From positions 1,312,001 through 1,376,000 of the forward strand of contig OZ251992.1 in NCBI GenBank assembly GCA_965246885.1: a DNA stretch of 64,000 nt. Reading direction: 5' to 3'. A program made the position numbers and the translations under genes. The notes beneath the pieces were generated by a model that worked only from the letters and a program-made list of their open reading frames with translations, was not told where the DNA came from and searched no databases. Positions within the stretch are counted from its first letter, which is position 1. Each line of letters begins with the position of its first letter. Below are positions 1,165-32,465 of this stretch, one piece after another. Origin of the DNA: Abditibacterium sp. GTDB lineage: Bacteria; Armatimonadota; Abditibacteriia; Abditibacteriales; Abditibacteriaceae.

Positions 1165-2604
1165 TCAAGGCACCGCCGTCAGCCACCCATGTTTCGCCTG
1201 CAACTTCGCGGCGACGGCGGGCGAAACCATGTGGATGAACGCCAGATAGCCGCGCGCGTAGGGGAGGGCGGGTTTGCCCATTTGCTCGGAAACCGCGCCC
1301 TCGCCGCGCGTTTCGATGGCGTGCAGGACGGCGCGGAAGCGGCGCAGGTCGCGGCGCGACAGGCGCGGCTCGCCGTCGCCGTTGACGACCAAACCCGTCA
1401 CGCTTTGCCGCGCGCCGCGCCGCAGGAGCGCGATTTTGTCGGGGTTGAGCGCGAACTGCTCGGCTTCCAACACGGTCAACACGCCGCGTTGCAAGGAGAT
1501 GGGCCGCGCGTCGGGCGCGGGCGACGAAAACACGAGGTCGTCGGCGTAGCGCGAATAGGTGAATCCGTAGTGCGCCGCCATGCCCTGAAGCCGCGCGTCC
1601 AAGCGGCGGCAGAGCAAATTCGTCAGCGCGGGCGAAGTCGGGGCGCCTTGCGGCACGAAGCGTTCGCCAAGAGCGACGTAGGATTTCTGGCCGTCGAAAG
1701 TGGCCGCAACGCGCGGCGATTCGGTGCAAATCAGCGCGAGCAGGGTGGCGATACCGCGATTGTAACCGAGCGAGCCGAACACCCCGGCAACGCGCGCGAA
1801 GGTGATGGACGGGAAGAAATCCTTCAAGTCCACGCGCAAGAGGGCGCTCGGCCCGCCCGATTCGGTGTGCGCGTGTCGGGCCGCGTTGTCGGCGATGTTG
1901 AGAGCGGGCAAGAACGCGGCGGCGGCAGCGTGAACCGGAACGGGGCGTAGCACGGCCTCCAGAATCTTGCTTTGCGCCGCTTTCAGATACGGGCGGGGCG
2001 CGGAAATGGCGCGACTGCCGCCGCTTCGTTTGGGAATGGAAAAGTGCGAGTAGTGATCGGTCGGCGCGGCTTCGCGGTGGTAGCACAACCACGCGAGTTG
2101 GCCGACGTTCATCTCCAGAAAGCCCGCCAAATCGCGCGGCTCGTTCCACACGGGCAGGCCAAAGCGCGCCAGTTTTTCGGCGTCGGACGGGATGGAAAAG
2201 TCGAGGCGGCGCGATACGCCGCGTCCCAAATGCGGTAACTGCTCGGAGCGCCACCGGGCGTCGTCGGCCAAGCGCAACTCGCGTTCGCGGGCGCGGCGTT
2301 CCTTTCGTTCGGCGCGCGCGGCTTTGACGCGCTCGATGCGGGCGCGGCGCACTTCGGCCAGCTTTGCTTCGATGTCTCCGGCGCTTGAAAGTTCGCGCTC
2401 CACGTCGCTCAGGCGGGCGCGCAAAGGGCGCGCATCCTCGGCAACGGCGCGCAGTTCGTCGTTGAGCGGCGCTAATTTGGCGCGTAGTTCCTCGGCAGTG
2501 GCGGGCGCGTCGCCGTTGGCGGGCGGCCAAAAACCAAGCCGTTCTATCTCGCGGCGCTCAAATTCGCGCTTCCCCAACTGCTTGATGTCGTCGCGCCAAC
2601 TCAT
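1165..2604 (-). CDS. Retron-type reverse transcriptase (479 aa) with N-terminal coiled-coil extension
   Basis: IPKRSGGSRAISAP, DNAARH (retron region X NAxxH), DLKDFFPSI, PQGAPTSP, YSRYADDL, RQSVTGLVVN (retron region Y VTG). ATG at 2604 overlaps the upstream stop (ATGA) and has an AAGGAG RBS. Confidence 0.92.
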   Translation of the reverse strand: MSWRDDIKQLGKREFERREIERLGFWPPANGDAPATAEELRAKLAPLNDELRAVAEDARPLRARLSDVERELSSAGDIEAKLAEVRRARIERVKAARAERKERRARERELRLADDARWRSEQLPHLGRGVSRRLDFSIPSDAEKLARFGLPVWNEPRDLAGFLEMNVGQLAWLCYHREAAPTDHYSHFSIPKRSGGSRAISAPRPYLKAAQSKILEAVLRPVPVHAAAAAFLPALNIADNAARHAHTESGGPSALLRVDLKDFFPSITFARVAGVFGSLGYNRGIATLLALICTESPRVAATFDGQKSYVALGERFVPQGAPTSPALTNLLCRRLDARLQGMAAHYGFTYSRYADDLVFSSPAPDARPISLQRGVLTVLEAEQFALNPDKIALLRRGARQSVTGLVVNGDGEPRLSRRDLRRFRAVLHAIETRGEGAVSEQMGKPALPYARGYLAFIHMVSPAVAAKLQAKHGWLTAVP

Positions 2605-4313
2605 CTCGCGCTCTCCTTTTCGGCTTGCGCCAAGCCCGCGAGCAAATGCGCGCACGGGCCGCCGCGTCCCTTGTCGCGGCGAAACTCGCCGCAGGTGCAT
2701 TGCCAGAACCGCACGCGCCCGTCCAAGTCGCGCGCCCACAAAGGCCTGAAAACTCCGCCTTCAGTTGCAACGACCGCTTGGAAAAAGGCGACATCGGGCG
2801 CGTTGTATCTCTGAAAAAATTCGTCCTCATCAATCTCGTCTGTGGGAATCGCTATCAAGATGACCAGTTGTTTCTCGACCCAGCGCCGCGCCGATTTCGT
2901 TTTGGCATCCTCCTCAGATTCGGGCGCCGGGAACGCGAGCAGTTGCCGCCAGCGATAGGCGCCGATCTTGGCATCGAAGAGCGCGCGGCCTTCCCGACAC
3001 AACTTTTGCAGAGCCGCGCCCGCTTCCTCGCGTGGCCAACTCGCAAACGCTGCCAACGCCTCGACTGAAAGCACGCGCTTCCACTCCAACTCCTTCGCGG
3101 CGATTTGCAGGCTCGAATCAGAGATTTCCCGCCCCGCCGCAAGCGCATCAAAGCGGGCTGAGGCGCTCCAATCGTTCTGCGTCCAGCCGGACAGCCCCAA
3201 CTCGAAGCGGTGCCCCTCCAACTCCAAAGCCCAAAACGACGGCAAACCGTCGCCCAGTAGCCGCACTTCGACCGATTGCGCGTGCGGCAACAACTCCGAC
3301 AACACGGACAAGCGCCGCCGTCCCCAAATACGGACGGTGCGCGCCGCCCCTTCGTAGGAGATGTTCGGCTCGCGCACGGTTTCTCCCCAAGGTTCGATTT
3401 CAATCGTGGGCAACTCGCCCGGCGCGAGCGAAAACTTGAGCGAACGCGGCCCGCTCGTTTCGCGGCGCGCGGCCAGAAGTCGCAATATCTCGGCAACGGT
3501 CGTCGCGCTCAAGCGCAAAGTCGTCGTCGCCAACGCCGAGGCGCTCCCCACCTGCAAAAACCCGCGCACCCACGACGGCGGCAGGTCTATCTTCTTTTCG
3601 ACCCGCGTGCCCGCAGAGGTTTGCACGCTCACGCCGCCGCTTCCCACGCTCAGAAACGCACCCCGATAGTCGCGCACCCGCGCCAATTCGTCGGCCAGAC
3701 TCTGCGAAAAGTCCACGTTCGTCGTGCCGTACGCTACCTCGCCGAGCGCGTCGAGGTTCTCGGACGGCACGCGCACGCACGCATAGCTGGATTCGTCGAG
3801 CGAGAACACCTCGAACAGCACCGCGTCGGGATGCACCGACACGACCGGATCAAGCACGATCCACATCTGCCGGTCGTGCGTGTAGAGGAACTGCCAGAAT
3901 TTGTATTGCGCGTCGCGGTAGCTTTTCGCGTCACCGCGCGATAGTTTTTGCACCTCTTGCAGTAGCTCCTTCGCGCGCCCATCGAGCGTCGCCAAGCGCG
4001 TTTGGAGTTCTTCCGATTCGCTCTGCAACTGCGGCAAGCGCCCGCGCAGCGCCGCCAAGTAGGGCGCCAAGTCCTTGAGGTATTCGCCCTGCACCCACGC
4101 CTGATAGTCCGTGTGGTCGCGCCCGACGAAGCGCGCTTCTTGCGACACGACGCGGTGCAACGCGCCCATCACGCGGCCATAGGCGCGCGAGTGCAACACC
4201 AACGCTTCCAACCGCACGCCGGGCCGGGCGGCTTCTGTGGGCAAAGAGAAGTCAAGGCCGTCGCCGCGCGGCTGGGCCGACGAGGGAAAGGGGTAAGATT
4301 GGGTAATTTGCAT
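2601..4313 (-). CDS. SWIM zinc-finger domain protein (570 aa), retron-associated
   Basis: C-terminal WQCTCGEF...GPCAHLLA (CxC...CxH); also LDPVVSVHPD...FEVFSLDESSY, TTNVDFS and LPPSWVRGFLQV blocks; translationally coupled to the RT. Confidence 0.85.
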   Translation of the reverse strand: MQITQSYPFPSSAQPRGDGLDFSLPTEAARPGVRLEALVLHSRAYGRVMGALHRVVSQEARFVGRDHTDYQAWVQGEYLKDLAPYLAALRGRLPQLQSESEELQTRLATLDGRAKELLQEVQKLSRGDAKSYRDAQYKFWQFLYTHDRQMWIVLDPVVSVHPDAVLFEVFSLDESSYACVRVPSENLDALGEVAYGTTNVDFSQSLADELARVRDYRGAFLSVGSGGVSVQTSAGTRVEKKIDLPPSWVRGFLQVGSASALATTTLRLSATTVAEILRLLAARRETSGPRSLKFSLAPGELPTIEIEPWGETVREPNISYEGAARTVRIWGRRRLSVLSELLPHAQSVEVRLLGDGLPSFWALELEGHRFELGLSGWTQNDWSASARFDALAAGREISDSSLQIAAKELEWKRVLSVEALAAFASWPREEAGAALQKLCREGRALFDAKIGAYRWRQLLAFPAPESEEDAKTKSARRWVEKQLVILIAIPTDEIDEDEFFQRYNAPDVAFFQAVVATEGGVFRPLWARDLDGRVRFWQCTCGEFRRDKGRGGPCAHLLAGLAQAEKESAR

Positions 4314-4340
4314 GATGGTCTTCCTGCCTTTGTGCTGGCG

Positions 4341-4410
4341 GGCGGGCAACCACATGGGTTGCCCCTACGGAGAGGGTGAGTGGTAGGGGCAACCGTATGG
4401 GTTGCCCGCC
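4341..4410. repeat. GTAG-type REP doublet in an operon intergenic spacer
   Basis: GGCGGGCAACCACATGGGTTGCCCCTAC (4341-4368) and the inverted GTAGGGGCAACCGTATGGGTTGCCCGCC (4383-4410); each is a hairpin with a GTAG tetranucleotide. Confidence 0.75.
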
Positions 4411-4424
4411 GTGCTGCGCTCTGG

Positions 4425-7400
4425 TTAAGGCGAAACCCGCAACCCCTCCACTTCCACGCCGCTCAACCGCAACCGCACGAGTTGCGCTAAGGCCCATTCG
4501 CGGTCGCGCCCCGCGCCGGTGCGCGCGGCGTCGAGCAGGGTGGCGACATCGGTCGTCTGCGCGTGACGGAGGCGGAGTTGCACGAGGTTTTTGGCGCGGC
4601 GCGAACTCCCGCGCGTGTTCAAGATGGAAGTGTCGAAGGCGGCTATGGGCGCCGTTGCGGGCGCGGTTTGGAGTTGCGCGGCCACAAAAGCGCGCACGCG
4701 GGGCGCGTCGTGTTGCGCGAGTTGTTCCAAGAGCGCGGGCGTCCAACGCGCGGGAAAACGCGCGAGCAAGTCGAGTCCGGCGTGTTGCGTTTCGCTTTTG
4801 GGCGAGTCGCACAGCGCCAACACGCGGGCGGGCCATTCGTCATTCTCGGCTTCAAAGAATGGGCGCGCGAGCGCGAGGCCTTCGGGCAAGCCGCTTTCCA
4901 TCAATCGCAGCCCCGCGCGCAGATTAAGCGGCGTTTGGCGCAAGCGGGCCAAAGCTGGGGCGCGGAACTCCTCATTCAAGGAAGTCGCGGCGGCGAATAG
5001 GAGCGGTTCGTCGCCCGCCATCGTGGGCAAGTGCGCGGCAAACCACGCTTCCAAGAGGGAGTCCAAACCGCCCTTGTTCGCTTCCATGAGCGGCAACACG
5101 GCATGCGCGGGCAATTCCGCGAACGCATTGTTTGCCCGCGCGCGTCCGATGCGCTCCAACCACGCGGCGCCTTGGGGGGCGTCGAGTTCGCTTAGAAACG
5201 CCCACAACGCGCCCGTGAGGGGCAAGGCCGTGAGGTTGTCGGCGAAGGTTTGGCTCGGCAGAGCCGCTAATTTGCGCCACGTCGCAACGGAAAGGTTGGG
5301 GGCCAGCGCCGCGAAAAAGTGTGCGCGGCCAAGCGGAGGGAGAAGTGCGGCGAAGTCGAAATCTTCGGCGCTCGCGGCGGCTTCGATGCGCGCGGCGAAC
5401 GCTTCGGCAAAGCGCGCTTCGCCGCCCAACTGCCAGAACTGCGCGCGCAACGCGGGCTGATTCCACAACCACTCCGCGACGGCGGGCGCCATCTTCATCG
5501 CCATCAAAGCGGGCGCGAGAGGTTCGAGCAACTCCTGCGCGGCGACGGTTCCCCACTCCGCGAGCGTCAATCCGTCGGGCCGCGCGCCAGTCAGCGCCGC
5601 GCAAAAGACGGCGCGGAGCGTCGGCAGGAGTTGCTTCGCCAGCGCGAATTGCGCGGCCCGCGCGCGCGCTTCGACAAGCGGCGTCGCCCACGCCACAACT
5701 TCCGGCTCGTCGGCTTCGGGCGCGTCGAGGGCGCGCAGAACCCATCCCTCGCTCGGCTCAATTTGCCTAAAGCGCGCGAACAAGAGGAGCAGTTCGCCGC
5801 GCACCGGAAGGAAGCGCGCCTCTTGCAACTGGCGCGCGAGCGGTTTCCAATCGGCGTTCGGGTTGGCCGACAAAGCCGCGCGCACGACGGCGAGCGCGAG
5901 TTGCGGCGCCGCGCTTGTGGCGAAGCGGAGCGCGTGTTCGGGTGTGGCGGCGGGAGTCTCGCCGCGCCGCGTCAGCCACTCCCACGCCCACGCCAGAATC
6001 GGGATGGGGAGGGCGTCGTCGCTCCACAACGCGCGCACCAAGTCGGGCCGCGCGGCGAAGACGGTGTCTTGGAGGCCCAAGCGAAAGGCGAGGGTGCGCG
6101 CGATATCGCCGCTTTGCGCGCGTTGCAGCGACCCCAAAACGAGCGGAGCGAGCAGGGCGCGGCGCTCCGGCGCGAGTTCGGTTTGTTCCGCTAAGAAGCG
6201 CAGCAACCGCTCGGCGCGGCGGGTGAGGTAAGCGACCGTCGCGCGCGTTGGCCCGCCGTTCGGCAGGCGTTTCGGGTCGCCGCGCCGCGCCGTCTCGGAG
6301 TCGAGGCGCCCAATCAGCACACCCAACAAGAGCGCCTCGCGCTCGGTGGCGAGGGGCGCGTCGGGCGGCAAGTCGCTCTCGGTTTTCTTCCAACGCGCGC
6401 GGGTTTGGAGTGGCCAAACCCGCGTTTCCAACGCTTTCCACGCGCGCTTGAAGTCGGGCCAAGTGGCGCCATCGAGCGGCGCACCGCGCAACTCGCGGCG
6501 CAACTTCTCGAAGTCGGCGCCCTCCGCGCCAAGCGCCATGTTCTGCGGCGGCAGGACGGCGTGCTTCGTCGGGTCAAATGGCAAACGCAGACTCAGGCGA
6601 AGCGATTTCGGGCGCGTCGAGGCGGGCTTAGGCAGCGACGAAAGTAGCAGCGTCGGCACCGTCTCGAAGTGATTGTCCGCGAAGAAGCGCGCCTTCGCGT
6701 CGTCGGACGCGAACGTCAGCACATACGCGCGGCCCACACCCGGATTCGCCGCCATATAAGGAAGCAACCGCGTCGGACTCCCCGTCTTGGTGCCCAAGTC
6801 GTTGATGAACACAACGGCGTCCTCTTGGGCAGTGAGCGGAGTATCTTGAGTGCGGAGCCGCGTTCCGAAGGGCGTGCGCGAGGTGGCGCGGACGGTGACT
6901 TGAGCGCGGTCAAACGAGTTGAACCAGTCATTCTGGATGGCGATGCCACTCCATTCGAGCGGGCGCCCCGCGCTTCGCAGCACGCGCGGTAGGTAGTCGC
7001 CCATCTCGCCCGTCAGTTGCGCGAAGCGGATTTTGGCTTCCCAGATGTTGGGCGCGGACGCGATACGTTCACGGAGCAGGGGCGCCAACTCGCGTTCGAG
7101 ACGCACGACTGCGGCGGCCAATCTGTCTTGAGTCGCGCCAGAGAAAATCAGCGCTTCACCTGTTTCGCTGACTTCCAACTTGTCCGGCGCAAACGCAAGC
7201 TCGACGCCGAGAGAAGTTCGCATTCCGCCCAGATTGCGGCTAAGCAGAAGCCCAGTAGAAACGGGGAAACCGACGTCATCCACCACTGCGAAGGATGAGC
7301 CGCCGCGTGTGACCTTCCATCTGTCGCCCTCGAATAGAACCTCGCCGCGTTGAGAGCCGCCCAAAGCCCCACCCCGAACGCGCGGCGGGACGCGGAAGAA

Positions 7401-8183
7401 GTCGAAAACGCGCGCGGCTTCGTGCCCGACGTGATTCGCTCTGAGTAACGAAGCGCCGATAGGGACTTCCACTTCCACGCCATCCCCCTGATTCGTCGGC
7501 ACTTCGCCGTCTTTGGTGACGGTGCCGATGCCCGCCATGTCGAGGGCGCATCGGAAGGTTTTGGCCCTCCCGCCTTGGAAGGTCGAGACGCGGAACTCGT
7601 CAGCGTAAGCGTAGGCGGCGCGCGCGCCGAAGTCGGAAGTGACGGCGGGCGAGAGGGCGTAGCGCGCGAGAACTTCGGCTTCGGTTGGGACGGCGCCATA
7701 CGAGCGGACGCGGAAGCGGGGGTCTTGGGCGGTCGGAAGCCAAACATCGAAGGGCGTGTCGCCGATGCCCGCCGCGTCGTGGAAAGCGCGCGCTTCGAGG
7801 GCGATTTCGCGGATGAGCGCGGCGATGGGGTTCGAGTAGCGCAGCGCGACGGGCAAAGCCGCGCGGTTGACGCCGATGACGGCGGGCGCACTTTGAATCG
7901 GCGCGGGCGAAGTGTTGGCGGGTGTCGCGGCGCGGGGCGCGTAGCGAAATGGGGGCGTCGCGGCCTTGACCGAAGCGTCGGGCGCGCGGTCGTAACCGGG
8001 CATCTGCCCACCCGAAAACATCGTTTGCACCACGCCGTTGACAAGGGGGTGCGGCACTTCGACGCCCGCTCCCAAGCGGCGCCGCACCTCCAGCGTTATC
8101 TCGTAGGCTGTGAACGAGGCGCCCGCCACGACTTGATCCAAAACGGTCTGGCGCGCTTCTAATTCGATTTGGGGGTTAGTCAT
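4425..8183 (-). CDS. Large (1252 aa) multidomain protein: small N-terminal domain, degenerate RIIA-like GHKL/HSP90-type region, C-terminal alpha-helical (HEAT/ARM-like) region
   Basis: RYSNPIAALIREI...AAGIGDTPFDVWLPTAQDPRFRVRSYG...AYAYADEFRVSTFQGG...DGVEVEVPI resembles phage RIIA N-termini. The C-terminal half is Leu/Ala/Trp-rich and helical (LALCDSP...LEQLAQHDAPRVRAFVA). Confidence 0.75.
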   Translation of the reverse strand: MTNPQIELEARQTVLDQVVAGASFTAYEITLEVRRRLGAGVEVPHPLVNGVVQTMFSGGQMPGYDRAPDASVKAATPPFRYAPRAATPANTSPAPIQSAPAVIGVNRAALPVALRYSNPIAALIREIALEARAFHDAAGIGDTPFDVWLPTAQDPRFRVRSYGAVPTEAEVLARYALSPAVTSDFGARAAYAYADEFRVSTFQGGRAKTFRCALDMAGIGTVTKDGEVPTNQGDGVEVEVPIGASLLRANHVGHEAARVFDFFRVPPRVRGGALGGSQRGEVLFEGDRWKVTRGGSSFAVVDDVGFPVSTGLLLSRNLGGMRTSLGVELAFAPDKLEVSETGEALIFSGATQDRLAAAVVRLERELAPLLRERIASAPNIWEAKIRFAQLTGEMGDYLPRVLRSAGRPLEWSGIAIQNDWFNSFDRAQVTVRATSRTPFGTRLRTQDTPLTAQEDAVVFINDLGTKTGSPTRLLPYMAANPGVGRAYVLTFASDDAKARFFADNHFETVPTLLLSSLPKPASTRPKSLRLSLRLPFDPTKHAVLPPQNMALGAEGADFEKLRRELRGAPLDGATWPDFKRAWKALETRVWPLQTRARWKKTESDLPPDAPLATEREALLLGVLIGRLDSETARRGDPKRLPNGGPTRATVAYLTRRAERLLRFLAEQTELAPERRALLAPLVLGSLQRAQSGDIARTLAFRLGLQDTVFAARPDLVRALWSDDALPIPILAWAWEWLTRRGETPAATPEHALRFATSAAPQLALAVVRAALSANPNADWKPLARQLQEARFLPVRGELLLLFARFRQIEPSEGWVLRALDAPEADEPEVVAWATPLVEARARAAQFALAKQLLPTLRAVFCAALTGARPDGLTLAEWGTVAAQELLEPLAPALMAMKMAPAVAEWLWNQPALRAQFWQLGGEARFAEAFAARIEAAASAEDFDFAALLPPLGRAHFFAALAPNLSVATWRKLAALPSQTFADNLTALPLTGALWAFLSELDAPQGAAWLERIGRARANNAFAELPAHAVLPLMEANKGGLDSLLEAWFAAHLPTMAGDEPLLFAAATSLNEEFRAPALARLRQTPLNLRAGLRLMESGLPEGLALARPFFEAENDEWPARVLALCDSPKSETQHAGLDLLARFPARWTPALLEQLAQHDAPRVRAFVAAQLQTAPATAPIAAFDTSILNTRGSSRRAKNLVQLRLRHAQTTDVATLLDAARTGAGRDREWALAQLVRLRLSGVEVEGLRVSP

Positions 8184-8267
8184 AATCTTTATCGCGCAGA
8201 GGCGCAAAGGCGCGGATGTAAAAAACCTTGGCGTCTTCGCGCCTTTGAGAGAGGCTTCTCACGCGCC

Positions 8268-9563
8268 TCACTCAAACTCCAGCAAATACACGGGGTTAGC
8301 TTGGGCGGTGTCGAAGATGATGACTTCGTCGTTGATGAGCCAGCCGGACTTTCCGGCGCGCGCCCAGTAGGAGTCGTAACCGGCGGGCGGGTTCTTGCTG
8401 GTCGTGGTCTTTGGCTCGAAATCGCGGCCAACGGCGACCTCGTTGAGGAACATATAAATTTTGCGCGTGCCCTTGCCGCCCCAAAAGCCGTTGGCGTATT
8501 GCAGCGATTTGGTCGAGGCGGGCGCGAAGTAGAGGCCGTTGCCAAAGGCTTTTCCGGCGATGTGGGCGGTCGAGGGCGGCGTCATCATAAAGCCGGACTT
8601 GAGGATGGACAAGACATTGGCGCTGGAAGTGCCGTGCCACAAGCGGTGGATGTTGCCTTTGGCGCGTCCGCGCTCCTCGAAGTTGCGCTTCATGCCCGCG
8701 ATTTCGACGGTGTAGACGTTGGCGAGATTTAGGTGCTTGATGGTGACGTGTTCGGTTTTGGCGGAGGTCTCGAAGTGGTGCTTGATGGCGTTAAACTCCG
8801 CGTCGTCGCGGAGTAGTTCAAGCGCGGTATCGAAGAGTTGCGGGACAGGTTCCGGCTCCTTGCCTTCTTCTTTGGGCGCAGTAAGCGCGGTCGTGAGACT
8901 CGCTTCAAGCGAGTCGAGGATGCCCAATTGTTTCTGGATTTCGGCATCGTCGGGGAAAAGCGACTTGGGATCGGGGCGGGTGCGGCCAAAGTCGCGCGGC
9001 ACGATGGTGAGGAACTGATTGACGAAATCAAGGTAGTCCTTGTCGTCCCAGATGCCCGCGTCCACTTTGTCCTTGATCTTCGAGAGCAGCAAACGCCCGT
9101 CCAAGATGCCGCCCTGCGTGATTAGCCCCGACGCGGTGGAGAACAACCCCGTCGCCGCGTTGTATTTGATGGCCGAGTTCGCGGTGATGTTGTGGATGTT
9201 TTGCGCGCACAGGAACGAAATGAGCGCCTTGACTTCGAGCGATTGGGTGCGGATTTGTTCGAGGGCGATCTGCTCCAATCCGGCGTTTTTGGCGCCCGCT
9301 CCAGTGGGAATGTTGGCGTCGAGAACGGGTTGCGGCTTGTAGCCCTTGGCGGTCTTTTCGCGCAGCTTGGAGTTGAAAAGCCGCTCGCCGCCCGCTTGGG
9401 TGGTGTCGGACTGCGTTTGCAGTTCGCCGCCGGAGTTCTCGATGTAGCGACCGTAGCGGATGCGGACGGTGTCGTCCTCGTGGAGGTCGAGATAGTAGAA
9501 CTTGTTGTTGTTGGTGCCTACCGACACGAAAATGAGCCGTGCGCTTTGGGTAACTTTCGACAT
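8268..9563 (-). CDS. Bacterial poly(ADP-ribose) polymerase-like protein (WGR + PARP regulatory + PARP catalytic), 431 aa
   Basis: WGR-like NNNKFY...IRYGR...KLREKTAKGY; regulatory FLTIVPRDFG...QLGILDSL; catalytic LWHGTS, GKAFGNGLYFA, KSLQYA, INDEVIIF (H-Y-E triad). GGAG RBS present. Confidence 0.9.
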   Translation of the reverse strand: MSKVTQSARLIFVSVGTNNNKFYYLDLHEDDTVRIRYGRYIENSGGELQTQSDTTQAGGERLFNSKLREKTAKGYKPQPVLDANIPTGAGAKNAGLEQIALEQIRTQSLEVKALISFLCAQNIHNITANSAIKYNAATGLFSTASGLITQGGILDGRLLLSKIKDKVDAGIWDDKDYLDFVNQFLTIVPRDFGRTRPDPKSLFPDDAEIQKQLGILDSLEASLTTALTAPKEEGKEPEPVPQLFDTALELLRDDAEFNAIKHHFETSAKTEHVTIKHLNLANVYTVEIAGMKRNFEERGRAKGNIHRLWHGTSSANVLSILKSGFMMTPPSTAHIAGKAFGNGLYFAPASTKSLQYANGFWGGKGTRKIYMFLNEVAVGRDFEPKTTTSKNPPAGYDSYWARAGKSGWLINDEVIIFDTAQANPVYLLEFE

Positions 9564-9910
9564 GGTGATTCTCCCGACGCGGCAAAGGCGTTGGATAAAG
9601 GGTTCTCGCGGAAGAGAATTGGGTTGTCAAAACAAAGAAACAAAGTGGGGCGGCACGCAGCTTTACCAACCGAGACGGGCGCCAGTCGCTGTAACCCGGT
9701 TTGCGGGGCGCGCGCCATATGTCGCACCGGTTGTGTCGTAGCCCCGTAGGGAAGCTACCGTGCGACACAACCGGTGCGACATATGGCGCGCGCCCCGCAA
9801 ACCGGGTGAAAACACACCGGCGACCCGTGCTGCAAGCGCAGCGAAAAGGGAAGTCATTGCTCGTCCGGCGAAACACCGGACACATTGCCAACGCCCCGCT
9901 CCACCATGTT
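9560..9910 (-). ncRNA. Candidate retron ncRNA (msr-msd) at the head of the PARP-RT operon
   Basis: Closing inverted repeats 9587-9594/9888-9895 (GGCGTTGG/CCAACGCC), extendable with 9560-9567/9902-9909. Small 5' hairpin GTCCGGTG-TTT-CGCCGGAC (9863-9881). 45-bp perfect hairpin 9694-9738/9763-9807. No credible ORF. Confidence 0.65.
9694..9807. repeat. Perfect 45-bp inverted repeat with 24-nt loop
   Basis: ACCCGGTTTGCGGGGCGCGCGCCATATGTCGCACCGGTTGTGTCG at 9694-9738 and its exact reverse complement at 9763-9807. Confidence 0.97.
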
Positions 9911-9917
9911 GACGGAG

Positions 9918-9946
9918 AATTTATCGCACTTCTCAGTCCAGCGCAA
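9918..9946 (-). promoter_or_regulatory. Putative sigma70 promoter of the retron/PARP operon
   Basis: Minus strand TTGCGC-17 nt-TAAATT with an upstream A-tract; predicted start near 9910. Confidence 0.45.
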
Positions 9947-10051
9947 GGGGGAAAAGCGAGTTTTTTTTGAATCGGATGAAAGCGCTCGGAAGAAAGCGAA
10001 TAAATTCGCTTTCCTCTATTGCACCGCTCCCGTCTAAACTGCGCCCTTCAT

Positions 10052-11107
10052 ATGAGCAACCCTTTAAAAGTGGGCGTTATCGGCGTGGGCGGCATCGCCG
10101 CCACGCATTTTCCCGGCTGGAAAGCCTCCGAAAACTCCGAACTCGTTGGCTTCGCCGACCCGGTCGCGCCCGTTTTGGCGCGCGTCGCCAAAGAGCACGG
10201 CATCACCAAAACCTACGAGAAGCCCGAAGACCTGATCAACGACCCGGACATTGACTTGATTGACATTTGCACCCCCTCGGCGTATCACGCGCCGCTCGCT
10301 ATTGCGGCGCTGAACGCGGGCAAGCACGTCATTTGCGAAAAGCCGCTCGCGCCCACGCCCAAAGACATCGAGGACATGATCGCCGCGCGCGACAAGTCGG
10401 GCAAATACCTGATGACCGCGCAGCACTTCCGCTTCCAAACCGATACGCAAGCCCTCAAGCGCGAAATCGAGGACGGTATCTTGGGCGACGTGTATCACGC
10501 CCGCTCGTGGATGCTGCGCCGCAACGCCCTTCCGACCGGACGCGGGTTCATCCTCAAGAAGAACTCCGGCGGCGGGCCGTGCATTGACATCGGCGTCCAC
10601 ATTCTCGACCTGACGCTGTGGATGATGGGGCACCCCAAACCCGTGTCCGTTTCGGGCGTCACGCAGGACAAGCTGTCGCGCATCCCCGGCGCGTTTTCGT
10701 CGTGGGGCGGAGATGTGCCGCAAGAGATGGACGTCGAAGAGTTCGCCTCGGCCTTTGTGCGCTTCGACAACGGCGCGACGCTCATCTTGGAAGTCTCTTG
10801 GATGCTGCATCACCCCACGTCGGGCGAGGATATGCAAATGTGGTTGTATGGCACCCAAAGCGGCTCGCATTGGCCCTCGCAGCGCATCGTCACCTCAAAC
10901 AACACCACCAAGCGCAAGTCGGACATCCAACTGTCACACGTGGACGAGGGCATGGAGCCGCATGCCGCCGAGTGCGTCGCCTTTGCCAAAGCCATCACCG
11001 AGGGCGCCCCCTCGCCCGTGCCCGCCGAGCAATCGCGCGACGTGCAACTCATTCTCAATGGCCTCTACGAGTCCGCCGCGACCGGCGCCGAAGTGCGGCT
11101 GGCGTAG
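10052..11107 (+). CDS. Gfo/Idh/MocA family oxidoreductase
   Basis: KVGVIGVGGIA Rossmann motif, GKHVICEKP, GGGPCIDIGVHILD. Confidence 0.92.
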   Translation: MSNPLKVGVIGVGGIAATHFPGWKASENSELVGFADPVAPVLARVAKEHGITKTYEKPEDLINDPDIDLIDICTPSAYHAPLAIAALNAGKHVICEKPLAPTPKDIEDMIAARDKSGKYLMTAQHFRFQTDTQALKREIEDGILGDVYHARSWMLRRNALPTGRGFILKKNSGGGPCIDIGVHILDLTLWMMGHPKPVSVSGVTQDKLSRIPGAFSSWGGDVPQEMDVEEFASAFVRFDNGATLILEVSWMLHHPTSGEDMQMWLYGTQSGSHWPSQRIVTSNNTTKRKSDIQLSHVDEGMEPHAAECVAFAKAITEGAPSPVPAEQSRDVQLILNGLYESAATGAEVRLA

Positions 11108-32320: not shown

Positions 32321-32465
32321 CCCAGCGACTAAAGTCGCGGGCAACCTACGGCGAAGTCGGCTTGCGCACATTAACCCCAATTGGAAGAAAAGACCCATGC
32401 CGTTTGCGCTTACAGTCGGCGCAGGCCGACTTCGCCGTAGGTTGCCCGCGACTTTAGTCGCTGGG
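32321..32465. repeat. REPIN family B: inverted repeat with arms of about 47 bp
   Basis: CCCAGCGACTAAAGTCGCGGGCAACCTACGGCGAAGTCGGCTTGCGC ... GCGCAGGCCGACTTCGCCGTAGGTTGCCCGCGACTTTAGTCGCTGGG. Confidence 0.88.

Follow-up and report, generated by a model that had tools for sequence, protein, structure and literature searches.

By the classical definition, as given in the available text of Mestre et al. (PMC7736814), the non-coding RNA (ncRNA) gene of a retron is contiguous with its reverse transcriptase (RT) gene. A 64,000-nucleotide (nt) stretch of DNA from Abditibacterium sp. (GenBank assembly GCA_965246885.1, contig OZ251992.1, positions 1,312,001 to 1,376,000; hereafter the window) raises the question of where such an RNA is encoded when the RT gene leaves no room for it. 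In this window the ATG of the retron RT at 2604 overlaps the stop codon of the preceding SWIM gene (2603–2601), so there is no spacer before the RT. An initial annotation had recognized this lack of non-coding space and proposed instead a candidate msr-msd, the two parts of a retron ncRNA, about 7 kb upstream on the minus strand.

Here we examine this element, which spans approximately 9910 to 9639 on the minus strand. All the parts listed in the initial annotation, and their order of arm, short hairpins, long hairpin and arm, are present in the sequence; the observation is confirmed and its interpretation as a retron ncRNA is supported. Very probably, the element is the msr-msd ncRNA gene of a type XIII retron and heads, behind a likely promoter of its own, an operon with the order ncRNA, WGR-PARP, HEAT/ARM, SWIM and RT. 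From the end of its 3' arm to the RT start there are 7,035 nt with three open reading frames (ORFs) in between, in agreement with the distance first proposed and at odds with the classical contiguity of ncRNA and RT.

Conservation and covariation in related operons

Relatives were collected by a search with the SWIM protein, which gave 32 loci. Upstream of the first operon gene, 17 of these carry a long perfect hairpin whose conserved flanks are those of the window element, and because one locus (L010) holds two tandem copies, there are 18 copies besides that of the window, 19 in all. Every copy folds alike: between long end arms come two short hairpins, the first of them of the CGGYGTTYCGCCG type, and then a perfect stem of 16–47 bp that is closed by a base helix (ACGGG.CGCCGG with CTGGCG.CCCGT, or variants). 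The order that had been read as retron architecture therefore recurs at 17 further loci, with strong covariation. It agrees with the retron ncRNA plan described in the available text of Mestre et al. (PMC7736814), in which a single long msd stem-loop comes after one to three short msr hairpins.

From 13 of these copies, at 12 distant loci (SWIM identity 46–56% to the window), we built a covariance model, R1, from which the window and the five relatives close to it were excluded. Applied to the window, R1 matches 9894–9655 over all 205 model positions with 107.5 bits (E 2.1e-25), so that covariance modelling recovers the proposed element; the match ends inside the 3' arm, at 9655. The five close relatives score 80.8–99.4 bits.

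Pairing is maintained by compensatory change. When the 13 copies are aligned by MAFFT alone, double changes occur in 39 of 56 predicted pairs. In a 20-copy alignment fitted to the model, the paired fraction of cells is 96.5%, compared with 63.5% for shuffles and 35–43% for slid partners; double changes affect 41 of the 56 pairs, and the covariation score is 0.856 versus 0.206, a value reached by none of 500 shuffles.

Individual helices differ in how they vary. The innermost five pairs of the two end arms, a1 and a2 (helix 1), show double changes at four positions. The first msr hairpin (helix 2) is 98.1% paired across the 20 copies, with double changes in four of eight pairs and frequent G-U pairs, which indicates selection acting on the RNA. 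The second msr hairpin is invariant in the six close copies, and Capsulimonas-like copies have another sequence, GTGAAG...CTTCAC, at the same position. Helices 4–6 are paired at 90.8–98.3%, and helix 6 combines double changes in 26 of 27 pairs with a complete absence of G-U.

R1 also finds ncRNAs that do lie next to an RT. It matches the spacer between SWIM and RT in L027 (Nannocystaceae; 48.9 bits, E 2.6e-10) and L028 (Myxococcota; E 1.9e-6), as well as in the Anaerolineales loci L026 and L025 (E 3e-5 and 6e-5). The RT-adjacent ncRNAs of these four loci contain hairpins like the first msr hairpin (CTGCGGCGTTACGCCGCGG and similar). The window element is therefore homologous to the RT-adjacent type XIII ncRNA and has been either moved to the head of the operon or kept there.

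Other long hairpins in the operons of relatives (L007 9752–9995, L010 9866–9988, L021 9778–9990 and L012 5639–5766) were considered and set aside, being unrelated in sequence and giving no R1 match. Tandem pairs of the ncRNA, about 300 nt apart, occur in L010 (6548–6751 and 6855–7058) and also in genomes G003, G072 and G125. Since the tandem copies have common flanks and different stems, one RT may make two msDNAs (multicopy single-stranded DNAs).

The distal position is the rule in the phylum

To place the 7-kb distance in context, we used a sample of 151 genomes of the phylum, with cut-offs of E ≤1e-6 for R1 and E ≤1e-40 for the RT. R1 matches occur in 19 of these genomes and RT matches in 21, the latter at 24 places. 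Of the 24 RT places, 20 have an R1 match 5,098–8,322 nt upstream of the RT, on the contig and strand that carry it; among the other four, one has its matches on different contigs and three have no R1 match. Distances are 7,051–8,322 nt in the four PARP-bearing loci and 5,098–6,169 nt in the remaining ones, and the 7 kb of the window is therefore typical of its lineage. The distal position of the ncRNA is the rule in this phylum and not an accident, and the element is conserved upstream of homologous operons as the initial annotation anticipated.

Published ncRNA searches, as far as their available text goes, looked closer to the RT: the de novo ncRNA search of the SPIRE survey used 600 bp upstream, and Khan et al. 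looked for ncRNAs within 500 bp of the RT. A distal layout for type XIII was not found described in the available parts of the literature; it may be depicted in Figure 5 of Mestre et al. or in their supplement, and the SPIRE survey as a whole covered ±10 kb about every RT. Distance itself poses no mechanistic obstacle, because RTs can use an ncRNA provided in trans by a second plasmid, as reported in the available text of Bobonis et al. (10.1101/2020.06.22.160168).

Folding and copy number in the genome

Folded as RNA, the 351-nt stretch that was first proposed reaches −202.2 kcal/mol, compared with −136.5 ± 6.1 kcal/mol for 100 shuffles (z −10.7), none of which is as good. The initial annotation had also raised the possibility of a multicopy REPIN or MITE. 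In the 3.56-Mb genome (completeness 92.7%), BLAST of the hairpin returns its own place only, on both strands as it is palindromic, and R1 gives one match; the hairpin is single-copy.

The background against which this is judged is dense. Contig C1 holds 133 perfect hairpins with at least 25 paired bases, many of which span 100–115 nt like the hairpin of the window. All-against-all clustering sorts them into families of 49, 13, 11, 7 and fewer members, one 'family' of six being a single tandem-repeat region counted repeatedly, and 23 singletons that include the window hairpin. Because long perfect hairpins are common in this genome, the hairpin by itself is weak evidence, and the case rests on the comparative data. 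Examples of hairpins resembling repetitive extragenic palindromic (REP) sequences or miniature inverted-repeat transposable elements (MITEs) are found at window positions 32336–32453, at C1:82541–82645 and at C1:1334910–1335050, and some of the repeats carry nested small hairpins such as GCGACTGAAGTCGC. The same REP/MITE-like families occur in relatives, where they enter spacers of the retron operon (L005 242–394, L007 5514–5649).

Two public DNA sequencing runs, available as contigs, contain the locus. Summed depth is higher over the arms, by no more than the twofold that a collapsed palindrome predicts, and this is neutral with respect to msDNA. Among the public runs listed with the locus, none is an RNA run.

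A perfect stem that changes rapidly

The long stem is conserved in its pairing and not in its sequence. Among the six close copies, mean identity is 84% in the 5' flank and 92% in the 3' flank, versus 35% in the stem arms. The hairpin nevertheless spans exactly 114 nt in all six, and in five it is perfect from the base for 38–47 bp, L003 having a one-base shift. In one public sequencing run these flanks enclose the stem found in another relative. The stem thus varies about as fast as unconstrained sequence, yet remains perfectly paired and fixed in length, a pattern that would point either to diversifying selection on the msDNA sequence or to a mechanism copying one arm from the other.

Pair types separate the stem from the rest of the element. 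Across 27 pairs in 20 copies the long stem has no G-U pair, as opposed to 70 among 597 pairs in the end arms (19 copies) and many in the first msr hairpin. Since a G-U pair in RNA becomes a C-A mismatch in the complementary DNA, a stem free of G-U fits one that pairs as DNA also.

Arms, priming site and predicted msDNA

Coordinates of the element and of the operon genes are collected in Table 1.

Table 1. Features of the ncRNA element and the operon that it heads (window positions).
Feature	Position	Strand	Details
Element overall	~9910–9639	−	End arms, two short hairpins, 45-bp perfect stem
Likely promoter	9918..9946	−	−35 TTGCGC 9946–9941, 17-nt spacer, −10 TAAATT 9923–9918
5' arm a1	9887..9910	−	AACATGGTGGAGCGGGGCGTTGGC; pairs with 9661–9639
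Part of 5' arm named in the initial annotation	9899–9888	−	GCGGGGCGTTGG
Candidate priming (branching) guanosine	9888	−	G of the conserved R-G-C-A motif at the 3' end of a1
msr hairpin 1	9863..9881	−	GTCCGGTG-TTT-CGCCGGAC
msr hairpin 2	9829..9842	−	GCTGC-GCTT-GCAGC
msd region	9675..9828	−	Base helix, long perfect stem and apical 24 nt (9762–9739)
msd base helix	9828–9817 with 9685–9675	−	ACGGGTCGCCGG paired with CTGGCGCCCGT
Perfect 45-bp stem	9807–9763 with 9738–9694	−	
3' arm a2	9639..9661	−	GCTGCGTGCCGCCCCACTTTGTT; backed by comparison with relatives
Distal arm of the initial annotation	9593–9578 (region 9560..9594)	−	CCAACGCC-TTTG-CCGC; overlaps the Shine-Dalgarno sequence GGGAG (9575–9571) and AUG (9563–9561) of the PARP gene
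Predicted msDNA	9662..9828	+ sense	~167 nt; both ends ± some 20 nt
WGR-PARP gene	8268..9563	−	431 aa (amino acids); Pfam PARP 7.4e-25, WGR 2.3e-08
HEAT/ARM-like protein	4425..8207	−	1260 aa; PADLOC HEAT-ARM_XIII 9.2e-07
SWIM/DEDE protein of type XIII retrons	2601..4355	−	584 aa; PADLOC SWIM_XIII 1.9e-150; Pfam SWIM 2.7e-4
Retron RT	1165..2604	−	479 aa; PADLOC RT_XIII 1.1e-139; Pfam RVT_1 9.9e-20

The two end arms pair over 23–39 positions in all 19 copies, L019 having chosen a partner further downstream. In every relative, a2 lies within about 15 nt after the conserved block GGCGCCCGTC, a position that matches a2 of the window, and a1 and a2 covary between loci: a G-to-T change in a1 that distinguishes L003 from L006 is mirrored in a2. 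In the window, the duplex of a1 (9910–9887) with a2 (9661–9639) has an energy of −29.8 kcal/mol. On this comparison we place a2 at 9661–9639, about 60 nt closer to the hairpin than the arm proposed in the initial annotation.

That more distal arm is a real complement of a1 in this sequence; its pairing (9594–9560) has an energy of −30.4 kcal/mol, which none of 200 shuffles reach. Run on the five close relatives, this test gives 13, 3, 163, 83 and 19 of 200 shuffles that do as well; the pairing is not kept among them, and the distal arm is ruled out as the conserved a2. At best it may be a local alternative partner of a1, particular to the window sequence. Its pairing would cover the ribosome-binding site (Shine-Dalgarno) and AUG of the PARP gene and could serve as a switch of translation particular to this sequence. 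The PARP-bearing clade also has a small conserved hairpin downstream of a2 and ahead of that AUG (9599–9620, TTCTC-TTCCGC-GAGAA), with which GTTCTCAACCGCGAGAAC aligns in L003, L004, L006 and L008. A run of T after a2 was considered as a conserved terminator and rejected, being present in eight of the 19 copies (window included) and missing in 11.

The promoter was placed by alignment. Near-consensus TTGACA and TATAAT boxes with a 17-nt spacer stand at equal distance upstream of the element in, for example, L009, L010, L011, L015 and L017, and the boxes of the window align with them. The window promoter scores 8 of 12, under the threshold of the scanner, and a scan for promoters and terminators returned no entry; because these boxes are too weak for the scanner, we infer the promoter from the relatives. 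Transcription from it would start at about 9911–9909, directly at the 5' arm. A gene on the plus strand (10019–11107), divergent from the operon, starts at about 10052, and the ncRNA promoter would therefore lie in a common spacer of approximately 140 nt. Its N-terminus, MSNPLKVGVIGVGGIA, we take to be oxidoreductase-like.

At the 3' end of a1, TTAGC is found in nine of the 19 copies; the window has TTGGC, with G9888 aligned to the G of TTAGC. The G of this motif is nearly invariant and the following C invariant (alignment A3). According to the available text of Khan et al., the branching base is mostly a G after TTA, and the first copied base is mostly a G. This rule, together with the conserved motif, points to G9888 as the priming base, with copying from about 9661/9662. 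The priming guanosine is thus most likely G9888, alternatively G9889; in the minimum-energy a1/a2 duplex of the window G9888 is paired.

The following mechanism is proposed. The end arms (9910–9887 and 9661–9639) would pair, and the RT, encoded 7,035 nt downstream, would act in trans and bind the msr hairpins. It would then use the 2'-OH of a G that closes the 5' arm, most likely G9888, as primer and copy the msd; the product would be branched single-stranded DNA, about 167 nt long and folded into a rod by its perfect 45-bp stem. The ends given for this DNA assume, following retron rules, copying from beside a2 up to the base helix; its predicted length agrees with the earlier estimate of at least 150 nt. 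Folded as DNA, the predicted msDNA reaches −81.8 kcal/mol (z −15.6; none of 200 shuffles as good) and forms a rod with a 13-nt 5' tail. Its size falls into what we take to be the class implied by the names Mx162, Sa163 and Ne144.

Alternative explanations

Several points weigh against reading the element as a retron ncRNA. The 20-copy alignment was fitted to the model structure and is therefore biased towards pairing, and the tie to experimentally proven msDNAs is indirect, running through our own model R1 and the RT-adjacent ncRNAs of L025–L028. The genome is rich in perfect palindromes of the size of the window hairpin. Arm-to-arm correction of quasi-palindromes during replication, by template switching, homogenises palindrome arms; because such DNA-level homogenisation could also produce a stem free of G-U, this absence is supportive and not decisive. 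An Rfam search at E up to 1 gave five matches and none at gathering score, and we discounted the best (MIR3454, 59.5 of 142 bits, on the plus strand) as a generic match to a long hairpin. Finally, RNA ends, reverse transcription and dependence on the RT are deduced for this element from sequence.

These points leave room for three other explanations. Reverse transcription of the element could have ceased, and the former retron ncRNA could now regulate the operon as a structured 5' leader, through attenuation or by hiding the ribosome site of the first gene. It does sit between the promoter and the first gene, its 5' arm can pair with the PARP ribosome-binding site as strongly as described above, and a2 is followed by a run rich in T in the window. 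That pairing is nevertheless weak or absent in the five close relatives, the run is missing in most copies, and the features of a retron are retained: the long arms, the R-G-C motif, the stem of Watson-Crick pairs only and the YADD motif of the RT. We regard a leader without reverse transcription as unlikely; the roles of leader and template are compatible and do not exclude each other. A site in DNA, a palindrome bound or recombined by the SWIM/DEDE protein without any role in RNA, would account for the pure Watson-Crick stem; the available text of Mestre et al. 2020 (PMC7736814) suggests a derivation of the SWIM protein from transposases. Against it, the a1/a2 duplex, the first msr hairpin and the apical helix 7 keep their pairing through G-U, which works only in the minus-sense RNA, and a promoter appears to stand directly upstream; this explanation is very improbable. 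Least probable of all is a REP/MITE-like palindrome that landed in the spacer by chance. The many similar hairpins of C1, and the entry of such repeats into spacers of the same operon in L005 and L007, speak for it; the window sequence is nevertheless unique in its genome, has conserved non-palindromic flanks and occupies the corresponding position in related operons from at least two phyla, and the repeats in the spacers of relatives have no R1 match.

A WGR-PARP gene apparently recruited in one genus

The first gene after the ncRNA encodes a PARP protein. Its alignment with human PARP2 runs over residues 15–381, from WGR through the catalytic domain. The regulatory domain (PARP_reg) scores 25.1 bits, against a cut-off of 26.8, and exceeds the cut-off in all five close relatives. 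The protein contains HRLWHGT, GLYFAP and INDEVIIFD, and an alignment with PARP2 and PARP3 shows the H and Y motifs; together we take the three to be the H-Y-E triad, the E presumably corresponding to the motif of PARP1. To judge from these matches, the protein follows the plan of WGR, regulatory and catalytic domains that defines the DNA-dependent PARP (ARTD) branch.

Its association with the retron appears to be confined to one lineage. The five close relatives carry the same PARP gene at the same place. In a sample of the phylum, this protein occurs in 25 of 301 genomes and in seven of the 12 genus genomes other than the window's own. An R1 match stands beside the PARP gene at all of the seven loci L036–L042, which belong to the genus of the window (its own genome and five others), and at L057 a weak R1 match is next to a partial PARP match. 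Full-length WGR-PARP homologues with 41–43% identity exist in other families (L043–L052, in genomes G026, G226, G249, G300, G261, G256, G234, G277, G139 and G087), and none of these ten has an R1 match beside it. As retron components they were rejected: the PARP gene is on another contig or 0.6–3.8 Mb from the SWIM gene in all five genomes checked, of which four have a 41–43% homologue and the fifth a 29% match. The PARP-less loci L009–L023 begin directly with the large protein. A resident PARP gene was thus apparently recruited into one retron lineage. Bacterial PARPs seem to be common in the phylum. Among papers that mention both retrons and PARP, none is, judged by its title, about a PARP in a retron.

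Eukaryotic WGR domains bind DNA breaks and turn on the catalytic domain, according to the available text of two sources (PMC4081085, PMC8190142). We tentatively suggest, as a possibility that we hold to be less than even, that in this genus the msDNA is the DNA ligand of the PARP. WGR would read the end or junction of the 45-bp rod, and cutting, debranching or displacement of the msDNA by a phage would make the regulatory domain let go of the catalytic domain, whose ADP-ribosylation or use of NAD+ would halt the infected cell. If true, the operon would give both the first case of a PARP effector in a retron and the first defined activator for a bacterial PARP. A role for WGR across type XIII would be hinted at as well, also for Mx162, the earliest retron to be discovered. 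With a PARP gene directly behind the ncRNA, this genus provides an enzymatic read-out for a retron type that has no assigned function, and a natural test of recognition between WGR and msDNA.

Relation to known systems

Type XIII (RT clade 10) comprises Retron-Mxa1/Mx162, Mxa2/Mx65, Sau1/Sa163 and Nex2/Ne144 in the available text of Mestre et al. 2020 (PMC7736814). Like these, the operon of the window encodes RT_XIII, SWIM_XIII and a HEAT/ARM protein, and like their ncRNA its element has long a1/a2 arms, short msr hairpins and a long msd stem, with R1 homology to loci of Myxococcota and Anaerolineales. It differs in three respects. In L025–L028 the ncRNA fills the spacer between SWIM and RT, whereas in the window it heads the operon, with three genes and 7,035 nt before the RT. 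Its msd stem pairs perfectly over 45 bp and keeps a fixed span. WGR resides on a separate PARP protein, in contrast to cluster 216 of Mestre et al., in which the available text (PMC7736814) puts it on the HEAT/ARM protein.

A precedent for a non-contiguous ncRNA and RT is provided by Retron-Sen2 and Retron-Eco9, whose operons have the order msrmsd-rcaT-rrtT in the available text of Bobonis et al. (10.1101/2020.06.22.160168). As in the window, the ncRNA comes first and an effector gene precedes the RT within one operon. There, a single gene intervenes; in the window there are three and in PARP-less relatives two, over 5.1–8.3 kb, and the retron type and effectors are different.

The PARP protein has the same three-domain order as eukaryotic PARP1/2/3. 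Unlike these, it is a bacterial protein of 431 amino acids without zinc fingers or BRCT and lies in a retron operon beside a predicted DNA-hairpin gene. The hairpin, for its part, resembles REP, REPIN (REP doublet) and MITE sequences in size and perfect pairing, and departs from them in being single-copy, syntenic across phyla, flanked by asymmetric conserved sequence and linked to an RT.

What is new here is the distal layout at the operon head, the perfect and variable stem, and the PARP partner in one genus; the RNA family itself is known. Searches or cloning restricted to the neighbourhood of the RT would score such retrons as lacking an ncRNA or RT-DNA. In this layout a single promoter serves the template RNA as well as the effector genes, and the RT comes at the end. 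A long, perfect and variable stem may also interest those who engineer retrons for DNA production.

The remaining genes of the operon

NAxxH and VTG mark retron RTs. The RT of the window has YADD, NAARH and VTG and is the single RT homologue in the genome; its open frame extends back to 2739, and the ATG at 2604 is preceded by AAAGGAGAG. PADLOC matches across the operon are strong for RT_XIII and SWIM_XIII and weak for HEAT-ARM_XIII (9.2e-07) and WGR_XIII (2.9e-04). On these protein matches the operon is a type XIII retron, with RT, SWIM/DEDE and WGR and/or HEAT/ARM as in the scheme of Mestre et al. Just 3' of the RT stop, a 17-bp inverted repeat (1049–1116) is the likely operon terminator.

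The HEAT/ARM-like protein of 1260 amino acids gave no match in Pfam. Only its C-terminal 220–310 amino acids are common to the first genes of the distant loci L009–L023. The N-terminal part varies by clade, with LVIVD beta-propeller repeats in the Capsulimonas-like loci, and looks as if it had been swapped, as a variable sensor or effector would be.

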